From assembly GCA_964632315.1 (NCBI GenBank), contig CAZWEM010000045.1:4893-40453 (forward strand): 35,561 nt of DNA, in the 5' to 3' direction. The DNA comes from an uncultured archaeon. GTDB lineage: Archaea; Asgardarchaeota; Lokiarchaeia; Sigyniarchaeales; SOKP01. The notes under the pieces are model-generated. The model had not been told where the DNA came from. It searched no databases and saw only the letters and a list, made by a program, of their open reading frames with translations. The position numbers were made by a program, and so were the translations under genes. This document shows, in pieces, positions 32,175-35,561 of this stretch. Within the stretch, counting starts at the first letter, position 1, and every line of letters starts with the position of its first letter.

Positions 32175-33206
32175 ATGGGAGAACTAAAAAAATCAAATAG
32201 AGACATCTGTGAGGGGCTCACGGATATTTACTTGATGTATTTTGACGAAGCTCGAGGACACGTCCCACTCTTTATCTATCCAGAAGAAAAGTTCAGTGAT
32301 TTAGTCCATAATAAAACGTTCATGCGTCCAATTAAATATCACCCAATATGGTTCTTAACTGTAGATGAACAAGAAGCTTTGGACCATATAGATTTAGAAT
32401 TTAAAGGTTATACCTTTTTTGGGAAAAAGTTTTTCGCAAAATCAAAGAGAAAGAAGAAACGTGCTGGATTAGATGATGAGACACCTGAAACTATCATAAT
32501 TATCATATCCCTACCTAATGAAGTAGAAATATTTGGAGATGACTTAATTAGACTGTTAACTAAAAGAATTATCGACCATTTTGGAGACAAATTATATGAA
32601 CTAATTGAATATGAAAACGTAAAAGATGAGGTAATTAAAACTCCTAGGATCAAAGAAATCATCGTTGAGGGAGAAAAAATTAAAAAAAGATTGGAGAACC
32701 TCATTTCAACGACTTGCGGACAATATTTTAGTTCTGTCATAAAAGAAACAGATACAAATTCGATTAAGCAGCAAAAGGCTCTTTCCTACCTAGCTTTGAA
32801 AGGAGTTGATGTTTCTCACTTGGCTTCTGGTGAGAAAGACAGCACTTTTTCGAATATAAAACTATTTGATCCATCTACAAGAAATAAAGAAGCCTTAAAA
32901 CTAAACTATCCATTTAATATCTCCGAAATTGGGATTATTGGAGATAGCCACGAGTTAGAAATAATTGTGCAAAATACTACTGATGAAGAAATCAGAGATG
33001 TTATTGTAAAAATTACTCATGTGAAGGAATTTTTCGAGAAAGAAATTATGAGTCAATTAGTTGATGAATGGTTTCCTCAAGAAGAACTTGTTTTTTTATC
33101 ACCTATTACTCCTCAAGTGAATGAGTATCTTTTCTTTATAATAGATAACGAGACTGAAAAAAGACTTTTGTCTCAAAAAATTGATATTAACATTTTAACT
33201 AAATAA
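32175..33206 (+). CDS. Hypothetical protein with putative longin/uDENN-like N-terminus and beta-sandwich-like C-terminus
   Basis: YLMYFDEARGHVPLFIYP resembles the FD...G.....YP opening of uDENN/longin domains; LEIIVQNTT.EEIRDV.VKI resembles an Ig-like strand pattern. Confidence 0.5.
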   Translation: MGELKKSNRDICEGLTDIYLMYFDEARGHVPLFIYPEEKFSDLVHNKTFMRPIKYHPIWFLTVDEQEALDHIDLEFKGYTFFGKKFFAKSKRKKKRAGLDDETPETIIIIISLPNEVEIFGDDLIRLLTKRIIDHFGDKLYELIEYENVKDEVIKTPRIKEIIVEGEKIKKRLENLISTTCGQYFSSVIKETDTNSIKQQKALSYLALKGVDVSHLASGEKDSTFSNIKLFDPSTRNKEALKLNYPFNISEIGIIGDSHELEIIVQNTTDEEIRDVIVKITHVKEFFEKEIMSQLVDEWFPQEELVFLSPITPQVNEYLFFIIDNETEKRLLSQKIDINILTK

Positions 33207-33224
33207 AATTGAAAGTGAAAATTC

Positions 33225-33713
33225 ATGTCTAAAGAAGAAATTGATAAAGAAGAAATAATAATTAGGAATTATCGGACTTCGGATTATGAAGCGACTTTAG
33301 AAATATTAAGAGAATTAGATCAAACTTTTCATATTGGATTAAAAGAAGATCAATGGAAACAATCGTCTGGTTTAAGACAATTTAAACCAAACTTGAAACG
33401 CATCACGTTGATCGCAGAATTAAAATCCACTGGAGAGGTTGTTGGAATGGGGATGATTGAAGCATTAAAAAACCCATTAGGACAATATATAGGTTATTTG
33501 AATAATTGGGCTACAAAGCAAGAATATATTGGCATGCAAGTTGGAAAAATCCTTGCAAAGCGAGCTATTAAATTATTAAGATCATGGGGGTGTGAAACTG
33601 TTCGTATAATCGTTGCATGGGGCTTTCCAGAAAAATTACTAAAAGTTTTCGAACAAACAGGATTCAAGCCCATTCAAATCGTGCTTGAAAACAAGTTTGA
33701 GAATGAACAGTAA
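33225..33713 (+). CDS. GNAT-family N-acetyltransferase
   Basis: IIRNYR.SDY, GEVVG, EYIGMQVGK.L, F.QTGF. Confidence 0.8.
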   Translation: MSKEEIDKEEIIIRNYRTSDYEATLEILRELDQTFHIGLKEDQWKQSSGLRQFKPNLKRITLIAELKSTGEVVGMGMIEALKNPLGQYIGYLNNWATKQEYIGMQVGKILAKRAIKLLRSWGCETVRIIVAWGFPEKLLKVFEQTGFKPIQIVLENKFENEQ

Positions 33714-33960
33714 TTATTTTTCTGATTTCCTTACAATTTTTTAATTTTATACCCAAATATTGATCATTTCTTTCAGATTCTTGTTCTGTTATATGAGTAT
33801 CCCCAACATTAAGTCTTCTATAAACTCATTTCAATTCCAAGAATTCCACTCCCAATATTTAGGAAAATTATTTTATTCTAAAAGATAGAAGATATACAAT
33901 ATACAATTTTAGTTAAAAAATTAAAATAAGAATTGATAAAATAAGAGGTTAAAATGAAAA

Positions 33961-35403
33961 ATGCCAATTGGTATTAAAAGTTATGGGGCATATCTTCCAA
34001 AATACATGCTTCCTCGTGAATCAATAGGGAAAGCGTGGGACTTTCCAGTTGTACCGGGAACTAAAGCCGTGGCAATGGAAGATGAGGATAGCTTGACGAT
34101 GTCAGTAGAAGCTGGACTCGATTGTTTGGAAGGAATCAATCCTAAGACGGTTGATGGATTATTTTTCGCATCAACGACTCAGGTTTATACTGAAAAAGAT
34201 TCTGCCTCGCTTATTGCCACCGTACTAGATATGCGAGAAGATATTCTTACTGCTGATTTTTCTGATTCTACTAAAGCTGGAACAACAGCATTAACTCGAG
34301 CAGTTGATACAATAAAGGCAAATGAGGATATTAAAAGCATCCTAGTCGTAGCTGCAGATACAAGAATACCTGAACCCTCCACGATGTGGGAATTTGGATT
34401 TGCTGATGGTGCTGCTGCATTATTAGTTGCAGATGAAGAAAATATCCCAATCTCAATTGATGATTATTATTCTGTTTCCGCAAATACAACGGGTCCTTGG
34501 AAGAGAGCAGATAAGGATGAGTTTATTCGCACGTTTGAAGTTAAAATGGATGCAATGTTTTATACCCAAAGCATGACAAAAGCAATGTCAGAACTCTTGA
34601 AACGCAATGGATTAAAGCCAGAAGATATTAATATTGCTGCATATTATTATAATAATCCCCGAATGCATAGTACAATCTCGAAGATCATGAAATTTGGTCA
34701 AGGAGTCGCTCAAAATAGTATATTCTTTCAAGTAGGAGATACCGGTACTCCTATGCCTTTCATGCTACTCATTGCCAGCCTACGACGTCCTAAACAAGAC
34801 GATAAGATCATTATGGCAGGATTTGGAGACGGTGCCGATGCTATACTCATGCAAGTTAAAGATAAAGATGGTGTACGACAAATTGGTAAAGGCAGAATGG
34901 GTTTCGTAGGGCACCAAAAGTCAATGGCTATCCTTAAAAATTATAACAAGTTCATAGAATTTAAAGAATTACTCAACAAGGATAGATATAAGCGAAAAAG
35001 TTCTGCGGTGACTCTCTGGAGAGACACGGCTTCTGTGTATAAGTGGTACGGGCTAAAATGTAAGAATTGCGGTACTGTTCAGTATCCCGATCTCATGCGT
35101 ACCTGCTCCTTCTGTCGAGCTGATGATCAACTTGAACATGTGAAACTTTCTAAGAAGGGCACAATCTTCACTTTCACGCTCGATCATTTAGTTGGGGGAG
35201 CCTATCTCAACACTCCCGTGCCTCGATGCGTTATTGACCTCGAAGGTGGTGGACGGGTGCTCGTGAACATGACTGAAATCGAAAAACCAGAAGAAAACGT
35301 TAAAATTGGAATGGAAGTCGAAATGACCTTCAGGAAAGAGCATGAAGGGGCTGAATTCAAGAATTATTATTGGAAATGTCGACCCGTGAGGGGGAGACCG
35401 TAA
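33961..35403 (+). CDS. HMG-CoA-synthase-like (thiolase-fold) domain fused to DUF35 zinc-ribbon/OB-fold domain
   Basis: GI.SYGAYLP, KAVA..DEDSLTM.VEA, DGAAA, GDTG, GFGDGADA; C-terminal CKNCG...YP...CSFC and G.IFTFT...GMEVEMTFRK...YYWK. Confidence 0.88.
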   Translation: MPIGIKSYGAYLPKYMLPRESIGKAWDFPVVPGTKAVAMEDEDSLTMSVEAGLDCLEGINPKTVDGLFFASTTQVYTEKDSASLIATVLDMREDILTADFSDSTKAGTTALTRAVDTIKANEDIKSILVVAADTRIPEPSTMWEFGFADGAAALLVADEENIPISIDDYYSVSANTTGPWKRADKDEFIRTFEVKMDAMFYTQSMTKAMSELLKRNGLKPEDINIAAYYYNNPRMHSTISKIMKFGQGVAQNSIFFQVGDTGTPMPFMLLIASLRRPKQDDKIIMAGFGDGADAILMQVKDKDGVRQIGKGRMGFVGHQKSMAILKNYNKFIEFKELLNKDRYKRKSSAVTLWRDTASVYKWYGLKCKNCGTVQYPDLMRTCSFCRADDQLEHVKLSKKGTIFTFTLDHLVGGAYLNTPVPRCVIDLEGGGRVLVNMTEIEKPEENVKIGMEVEMTFRKEHEGAEFKNYYWKCRPVRGRP

Positions 35404-35410
35404 AGGAGGT
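35404..35410 (+). promoter_or_regulatory. Shine-Dalgarno site for the thiolase gene
   Basis: AGGAGGT ending 8 nt before ATG 35419, straight after the upstream stop codon. Confidence 0.7.
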
Positions 35411-35418
35411 AATGAAAA

Positions 35419-35561
35419 ATGGTTAGACATGGTATTAGAGATAAAGTCGCAATTATAGGTTGTGATATGACTAAATATGGCGAGCTTTGGGATAAATCGC
35501 AATATGACCTGCTTTTTGAAGCAGTTCAGAGCGCTACCAAAGACGCTAGAATTAATAAGGA
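35419..35561 (+). CDS. Thiolase / acetyl-CoA acetyltransferase (SCP2-type) N-terminus; runs off the right edge
   Basis: Hand translation MVRHGIRDKVAIIGCDMTKYGELWDKSQYDLLFEAVQSATKDARINK matches the VAIIG...T.FG.........L..EA...A..DA thiolase start; DUF35 context agrees. Confidence 0.85.
   Translation, partial: MVRHGIRDKVAIIGCDMTKYGELWDKSQYDLLFEAVQSATKDARINK

Follow-up and report, generated by a model that had tools for sequence, protein, structure and literature searches.

A fused HMG-CoA synthase-like/DUF35 protein without the HMG-CoA synthase active site, encoded next to a thiolase gene in a Lokiarchaeia-type Asgard archaeon

The subject of this analysis is a pair of adjoining genes at the end of a 35,561-nucleotide stretch of DNA (contig CAZWEM010000045.1 of assembly GCA_964632315.1, positions 4,893 to 40,453; hereafter the window) from an uncultured Asgard archaeon. 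The first gene encodes a 480 amino acid protein in which a fold like that of 3-hydroxy-3-methylglutaryl-coenzyme A (HMG-CoA) synthase (HMGS) is fused to a DUF35 domain; the second, cut by the contig end, encodes a thiolase. We propose that the two genes specify a heteromeric SCP2-type thiolase, in which the fusion protein, its HMGS catalytic residues lost, is probably the non-catalytic partner of an active thiolase. The PRK06157-type thiolase would be the sole catalytic subunit, with a catalytic set made up of the CxS Cys as nucleophile, both the His and the Cys of HDxF, and the GHx His, and would perform the CoA-dependent thiolysis of a 3-oxoacyl-CoA or, in reverse, the condensation. The zinc-ribbon/OB domain of DUF35 would clamp the thiolase, and the dead HMGS-fold domain would occupy the place of HMG-CoA synthase (HMGCS) in the archaeal thiolase/HMGCS/DUF35 complex. 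In that position it most likely holds the oligomer together and, by analogy with that complex (PDB accession number 6esq), most likely provides the HMGS side of a shared CoA-binding chamber. We infer that the two proteins form a complex, that the dead domain serves the CoA chamber and that the reaction runs towards thiolysis; the substrate is likewise an inference. The module would be an accessory paralog of the mevalonate-entry complex, making no HMG-CoA.

The active-site residues were mapped by three independent alignments, to PhlA (9skh/5m3k), to the HMGCS of Methanothermococcus thermolithotrophicus (6esq_I) and to the canonical HMGS of the same genome. The catalytic tetrad of the M. thermolithotrophicus enzyme consists of E82, C114, H238 and N270 (Liao et al. 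2026, PMC12960953); in the alignments these Glu, Cys, His and Asn positions correspond to Thr72, Thr104, Tyr229 and Asp260 of the fusion protein. An earlier, sequence-only reading of the window had noted the change of Cys to Thr104, ASTT in the Glu region and YYYNN in the His region, and had concluded that the HMGS fold was apparently dead. All three alignments bear out these observations, and none places a Cys/Glu/His triad in the protein. The same positions were followed in 107 full-length close orthologs (at least 71% identity) and in 134 full-length representatives of the wider family (28–49% identity). Thr fills the Glu position in all 107 close orthologs and in 114 of the 134 distant representatives, and Tyr the His position in 105 of the 107. 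At the Cys position, Leu is found in 76 of the close orthologs (71%), Thr in 30 and Ile in one, and Leu again in 92 of the 134 distant representatives; Glu at the Glu position or Cys at the Cys position occurs in none of the 134. The former His and Asn positions vary freely in the wider family. Since Leu prevails at the Cys position among the close orthologs, Thr104 is not a concealed nucleophile, and the meaning that had been attached to this particular substitution is lost.

Judged by these residues, the HMGS-like domain is confirmed as catalytically dead. Many of its orthologs are named hydroxymethylglutaryl-CoA synthase in the databases and its fold is that of HMGCS, but we give a vanishingly small probability to its being a true HMG-CoA synthase with non-canonical residues. 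None of the four tetrad residues is kept, most orthologs having Leu in place of the nucleophile, and replacement of the tetrad in the archaeal complex abolished HMG-CoA formation (Liao et al. 2026, PMC12960953). The protein also falls below the cut-off of every HMGS model: residues 2–334 score 174 bits against NF003274 (cut-off 244) and 114 bits against TIGR00748 (cut-off 353), so that membership in the archaeal HMG-CoA synthases fails on score as well as on the Glu, Cys, His and Asn residues. Finally, a canonical HMGS is encoded elsewhere in the genome.

Pfam analysis of the 480 amino acid protein revealed OB_ChsH2_C (DUF35; PF01796) at residues 394–458 (43.4 bits, cut-off 27.1), zf-ChsH2 (PF12172) at residues 358–389, slightly below its cut-off (22.6 against 23.2 bits), and a match to ACP_syn_III. 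The DUF35 part matches the DUF35 subunit of the archaeal complex (6esq_E, E-value=1.3e-11). Across 141 sequences (28–89% identity) the zinc-ribbon residues Cys367, Cys370 and Cys385 and the linker residue Tyr328 show no variation, and Cys382 is kept in at least 90%. The AlphaFold2 (AF2) model of the fusion protein, built from 141 sequences, is very confident (mean predicted local distance difference test [pLDDT] 95.6, predicted template modelling score 0.94), which implies that the two domains are held in a fixed arrangement. Pfam, NCBIfam and this single model together place the HMGS fold and DUF35 (zinc ribbon and OB fold) in one polypeptide, as had been read from the sequence. The top Foldseek match of the model is the archaeal HMGCS 6esq_I (template modelling [TM] score 0.92, normalised to the target; root-mean-square deviation 1.8 Å), followed by PhlA (5mg5_A, 0.87), the Chromobacterium acyltransferase (ATase) subunit and MucA (9vbo, 0.87–0.89).

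The fusion gene ends with TAA at 35401–35403 and the thiolase ATG follows at 35419, leaving a gap of 15 nucleotides; this spacing and the strong AGGAGG Shine-Dalgarno site within it are as previously described. The 47 amino acids of the thiolase that lie in the window match NF004810 best, at 40.8 bits, being too short for the 403-bit cut-off, and also NF004720. The remaining sequence is absent from the assembly, in which tblastn returned just this 47 amino acid start. A search with the fusion protein recovered 80 Asgard loci at species level, and at 79 of them the fusion is directly followed by a thiolase gene on the same strand. The full orthologous thiolases have 391–397 amino acids, and in 44 of them (70–97% identity) C87-A-S (CxS), H292-D-C-F (HDxF) and G341-H-P (GHx) are invariant; an ortholog in genome G008 scores 510 bits against NF004810 (PRK06157). 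No other thiolase of the window's genome reaches the NF004810 cut-off. Likewise, no thiolase above it was found in five fusion-free genomes of the same family (93–100% complete), while of five fusion-bearing genomes four have such a thiolase directly adjacent to the fusion and the fifth has one broken by stop codons. In this gene pairing and co-occurrence, fusion and thiolase behave as one unit; the earlier view of the HMGS-like protein as a pseudoenzyme scaffold or partner of the thiolase is retained as the best reading.

Since the partner, as read from the orthologous loci, keeps CxS, HDxF and GHx, belongs to PRK06157 and is far nearer to the archaeal acetoacetyl-CoA thiolase (ACAT) 6esq_A, its best PDB match (E-value=4e-62), than to PhlC (1e-24), ordinary CoA-dependent thiolase chemistry is expected of it. 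The sequence-only reading had proposed a PhlC-like thiolase with unknown acyl-transfer or C-C cleavage chemistry, and PhlC-like acyl transfer is not supported by these data; its comparison with PhlACB holds for the architecture (a non-catalytic HMGS-like part, DUF35 and a thiolase) and breaks down for the chemistry, as the partner keeps HDxF. Might the module nonetheless be a Friedel-Crafts C-acyltransferase of the PhlACB/MucABC type, transferring acetyl to a small-molecule acceptor? By sequence the HMGS-like domain is slightly nearer to PhlA (E-values 2.7e-22 and 8.5e-20) than to archaeal HMGCS (2.5e-18), and fusion and PhlA have in common an Asp at the Asn position and Arg135. Moreover, a gene for a beta-eliminating lyase (PF01212, tryptophanase/tyrosine-phenol-lyase family) lies divergently, immediately upstream of the fusion, at 28 of the 80 loci (e.g. 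L052:130–1509, minus strand), though it is absent from this window. We regard the acyltransferase as quite improbable all the same, given that HDxF, lost in PhlC and MucB, is invariant in the partner thiolase, that the partner matches archaeal ACAT so much better than PhlC, that no PKS (polyketide synthase) or NRPS (nonribosomal peptide synthetase) genes occur in the neighbourhoods of the 80 loci, and that the dead domain is structurally nearest to archaeal HMGCS.

Complex prediction was run with the fusion and the thiolase of the closest intact ortholog (L041). It returned "weak support", with a median score of 0.60 (runs of 0.72, 0.60 and 0.55) against 0.00 for the best control, contact agreement between runs of at least 93% and a partner pLDDT of at least 91. 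The method had been calibrated on 80 solved complexes, of which 58 attained the mark, and on 110 mismatched pairs, of which 2 did; scores of 0.60 or lower occurred in just 7 of those 80 solved complexes and in both passing mismatches. As like complexes have been solved (6ESQ, 5M3K, 9VBO), the pass may reflect memory, and none of these values is used as evidence here. In three studies there are metatranscriptome contigs that coincide with portions of the gene, one 75-nucleotide piece spanning the junction of fusion and thiolase (35370–35444); contigs in RNA libraries are no proof of transcription, and we take them as a weak hint only.

Some loci depart from the two-gene arrangement. A second thiolase paralog of 391 amino acids follows the 395 amino acid partner in tandem at several loci (L074, L092, L093, L094, L096 and L100). 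The partner thiolase is interrupted by three in-frame TAA codons in genome G016 (C28:22059–23325) and split into two open reading frames (ORFs) in G007 (L040:10571–11788), and the fusion gene itself has in-frame stops, one TAG and one TAA, in G144 and G257. These stops and splits could be decay or assembly errors.

The fused protein is not confined to Asgard archaea. A profile-free search of 1.8 billion cluster representatives gave at least 356 clusters (50% identity) at E<=1e-30, nearly all of 460–490 amino acids, with Helarchaeota, Actinomycetota, Dehalococcoidia and Acidimicrobiia among the labelled members. Full-length matches (98–100% coverage, E-values down to 5e-42) were obtained to fused proteins of Variovorax, Azoarcus, Rhodococcus and Sphingobium megaplasmids. 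These bacterial homologs also have a dead tetrad and are followed, in the same order, by an NF004810 thiolase (575–659 bits); identity between the window type and those examined is about 29% for the fusion and 46–48% for the thiolase. The bacterial pairs sit among genes for short-chain dehydrogenases/reductases (SDR), MaoC dehydratases, acyl-CoA dehydrogenases, enoyl-CoA hydratases and CoA-transferases, a setting which resembles beta-oxidation.

Liao et al. (Nat Commun 2026, PMC12960953) described 1,001 bacterial loci with HMGS, ACAT and DUF35 genes and without secondary-metabolism genes. The purified PfACAT/HMGS-DUF35 of Pseudomonas fluorescens is fused, has lost the tetrad, keeps CxS, HDxF and GHx, cleaves acetoacetyl-CoA and forms no HMG-CoA (PMC12960953). 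They place PhlACB and MucABC one step further on, where HDxF has gone from the thiolase as well and the enzyme acylates small molecules. The interfacial CoA chamber is reported to be kept even in dead-HMGS complexes, and the bacterial loss of HMGS function is explained by use of the methylerythritol phosphate (MEP) pathway (PMC12960953). The window module falls at the first step of this scheme. With bacterial members of the class already described and assayed in January 2026, the module is less novel than the earlier reading had assumed.

The canonical HMGS of the same genome is a 542 amino acid protein encoded on contig C4 (153472–155100; L002:637–2265, minus strand). It matches PF01154 and PF08540 and its Glu (GTETITY), Cys (NACAGG) and His (FHAPF) motifs are intact; UbiD-family and cis-prenyltransferase-like genes adjoin it. 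Contig C43 carries a live pair, namely a thiolase with intact CAS, HDCF and GHP motifs and a stand-alone DUF35 gene. With a canonical HMGS and a live thiolase/DUF35 pair present elsewhere, and with several near-complete congeners in which the module was not detected, it is to be seen as accessory and not as the entry to the mevalonate pathway; the earlier argument against mevalonate synthesis was therefore sound. Many database records give the dead fusion gene the name "HMG-CoA synthase", so that Asgard metabolic reconstructions counting it as a mevalonate enzyme are wrong, the true HMGS being the separate 542 amino acid protein. The top-scoring model for the canonical HMGS is the bacterial-type TIGR01835, and the protein contains a long insertion and ends in a Cys-rich extension of some 140 amino acids. 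This extension is not recognisable as a divergent DUF35 (hhalign probability 0.5%). Three more SCP2-type thiolases and two stand-alone DUF35 genes lie in a cluster at C1:63600–70100, and further pairs on C37 and C43, which gives the genome many thiolase/DUF35 pairs.

Could the same complex be biosynthetic? It might condense acyl-CoA with acetyl-CoA, in reverse beta-oxidation or archaeal fatty-acid synthesis, or supply acetoacetyl-CoA to the separate HMGS, with the fusion as a docking hub. Multiple thiolase/DUF35 pairs are reported to be abundant in Asgard genomes (Schmerling et al., bioRxiv 2024.07.05.601840), and SDR and MaoC dehydratase genes lie directly upstream of the fusion at the bacterial loci, both of which speak for such a role. 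We consider it rather unlikely, however, since with the HMGS site dead nothing within the two-gene module pulls the endergonic condensation, reductase and dehydratase genes are absent near the Asgard loci, and the near-complete congeners without the module still need mevalonate. The other Asgard neighbours are of little help. In the window a 343 amino acid protein without a Pfam match and a 162 amino acid GNAT acetyltransferase are encoded upstream of the fusion on the same strand (32175–33713); the former is syntenic with the fusion at 56 of the 80 Asgard loci and a GNAT gene at 59, and an enolase-superfamily (MR/MLE) gene occurs on the opposite strand at 39. MscL- and AAA-type genes are found as well. 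These neighbours show no evident functional link and provide no clue to a pathway.

Orthologs of the fusion in Asgard metagenome-assembled genomes (MAGs) have 71–100% identity. The gene was found in 13 of the 18 congeners first sampled and not in several that are 93–100% complete. Within the phylum it occurs in 89 of 301 sampled genomes; most of these belong to the family of the window, where 69 of 91 genomes carry it, and the sampled genomes of several large families yielded none (0/71, 0/27 and 0/19). Among the genus orthologs (G002–G017) identity to the window's fusion falls into two groups, 86–89% and 74–75%, which the identity of the canonical HMGS does not track, and MAG DZ2S.252 has three fusion copies (L062, L080 and L100). 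This suggests paralogous lineages, exchange among Asgard archaea or contamination of bins. A 5.3-kb contig binned as "Candidatus Deferrimicrobium sp." (L042, DATKTP010000068.1) carries an 88% identical copy in Asgard synteny (enolase-superfamily gene, 343 amino acid protein, GNAT, fusion, thiolase) and is probably a mis-binned Asgard contig.

Comparison with the ten closest orthologs gave about 0.07 nonsynonymous substitutions per site (dN), saturated synonymous change (dS>1.7) and an omega of at most about 0.03–0.04. Constraint on the dead domain (dN 0.064–0.074) is no looser than on the DUF35 domain. Four of seven genome pairs showed 86–89% identity in the fusion against 72–74% in their canonical HMGS. 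These rates indicate a functional protein under strong purifying selection. Such constraint would be explained if the HMGS-like domain had taken on a new role, whether in ligand binding, regulation or catalysis. Its rate of evolution equals or lies below that of the live HMGS in these genomes, and two charged residues which the canonical HMGS does not have, Glu78 and Arg135, are at least 90% conserved across the 141 sequences. Yet the freely varying His and Asn positions and the Leu-filled Cys position form the pattern of a filled, unused pocket, and PhlA and MucA are non-catalytic in the solved complexes; a gained function of this kind appears improbable.

There is a bolder idea, to which we give a small chance: the dead domain of Lokiarchaeia-type Asgard archaea may do more than persist as a vestigial scaffold, retaining an acyl-CoA/CoA chamber for regulation or for the docking of enzymes. 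It is prompted by the conservation above that of live HMGS in most pairs, by Glu78 and Arg135, and by the conserved Tyr228–230 run at the old active site. If true, the module would be a dedicated hub for acyl-CoA processing in the fermentative metabolism of Asgard archaea, of a kind not described before, arisen or acquired alongside an intact mevalonate complex.

Several observations weigh against the proposal of a heteromeric thiolase with a non-catalytic HMGS/DUF35 partner. The window's own thiolase is cut by the contig end, and its catalytic residues are taken from orthologous loci. Acetoacetyl-CoA has been shown to be a substrate only for a bacterial counterpart. Beta-oxidation genes are absent from the 80 Asgard neighbourhoods, unlike those of the bacterial loci. 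Furthermore, 154 of the 480 positions are at least 99% conserved in the 107 orthologs, a degree of constraint beyond the obvious needs of a passive scaffold.

Three points have a modest novelty. The module exists side by side with a complete set for mevalonate entry in an archaeon; in most genome pairs (four of seven) its dead domain has diverged less than live HMGS; and fusion and PRK06157-type thiolase co-occur strictly in bacteria and Asgard archaea. The class of "dead HMGS/DUF35 plus live thiolase" is extended from bacteria to archaea, and is common in one archaeal lineage. Since archaea need the mevalonate pathway, such complexes can lose HMGS function independently of the MEP pathway, and the loss is possible in a paralog. 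Fusion and PRK06157-type thiolase make up a portable two-gene thiolase module of bacteria and Asgard archaea.

The window covers the final 35.6 kb of contig C45 (40.5 kb) and ends where the contig ends; the assembly measures 4.45 Mb, with 33% G+C. The nearest relatives are MAGs with the label Promethearchaeia/Promethearchaeota, which stands for Lokiarchaeia-type Asgard archaea, and the sequencing runs which contain the stretch are salt-marsh and marsh metagenomes. The features of the two genes are listed in Table 1.

Table 1. Features of the fusion gene and the adjoining thiolase gene (window coordinates)
Feature	Position	Strand	Basis
Shine-Dalgarno-like AAGAGGT before fusion ATG (33961), predicted	33943..33949	+	read from sequence
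Pseudo-HMGS/DUF35 fusion gene, 480 aa	33961..35403	+	ORF; Pfam/NCBIfam domains; AF2 model; orthologs
HMG-CoA synthase-like thiolase-fold domain, aa 1-305, catalytically dead	33961..34875	+	Foldseek; tetrad replaced
Thr72 codon ACG, catalytic Glu position (GSES to ASTT)	34174..34176	+	alignments
Thr104 codon ACT, catalytic Cys position (FACKAGT to DSTKAGT)	34270..34272	+	alignments
Tyr229 codon, catalytic His position (FHQPN to YYYNN)	34645..34647	+	alignment
Asp260 codon, catalytic Asn position (GNT to GDT)	34738..34740	+	alignment; PhlA likewise Asp
Helical linker between the two domains, aa 306-350	34876..35010	+	AF2 helices 302-309, 314-321, 328-334, 349-354
Rubredoxin-like zinc ribbon of DUF35, aa 358-389, Cys367/Cys370/Cys382/Cys385	35032..35127	+	PF12172 match
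OB-fold of DUF35, aa 394-480	35140..35400	+	PF01796; match to 6esq_E
AGGAGG Shine-Dalgarno site, 9 nt ahead of thiolase ATG	35404..35409	+	read from sequence
Partner SCP2-type (PRK06157-type) thiolase, first 47 codons, ends at contig end	35419..35561	+	best NCBIfam match NF004810

Among the known systems, the benzoylsuccinyl-CoA thiolase BbsAB (7PXP) and the Sulfolobus KT/DUF35 fatty-acid-synthase complex are likewise SCP2-type, with HDxF and dependent on DUF35, but their DUF35 has no HMGS-like domain attached. PhlACB (PpATase, 5M3K/5MG5), CsATase (9SKH) and MucABC (SmaATase, 9VBO) combine, like the window type, a non-catalytic HMGS-like part in which Glu and Cys are replaced, a DUF35 part and a catalytic subunit of thiolase fold. 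PhlA, which is the best PDB sequence match of the HMGS-like domain of the fusion, has Cys83 at the Glu position and Gly115 at the Cys position and is non-catalytic. PhlC and MucB are without HDxF and use small-molecule acceptors (PMC12960953), whereas HDCF is invariant in the window-type partner thiolases; the Phl and Muc subunits are separate and their genes lie in antibiotic clusters, whereas the window type is fused and without such a cluster. The archaeal thiolase/HMGCS/DUF35 complex (6esq) has the same three folds, and the dead domain superposes best on its HMGCS subunit. It differs in having the HMGS tetrad, the absence of which from the window module means that there can be no channelling to HMG-CoA, in having DUF35 as a separate subunit, and in being near-universal where the module is accessory and patchy. 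With PfACAT/HMGS-DUF35, taken from its published description, the window module shares the HMGS-DUF35 fusion, the lost tetrad, a thiolase with CxS, HDxF and GHx (here in the orthologs) and a context free of PKS and NRPS genes. The difference is that the window locus is archaeal and exists beside an essential canonical HMGS, so that the explanation by the MEP pathway does not apply to it.

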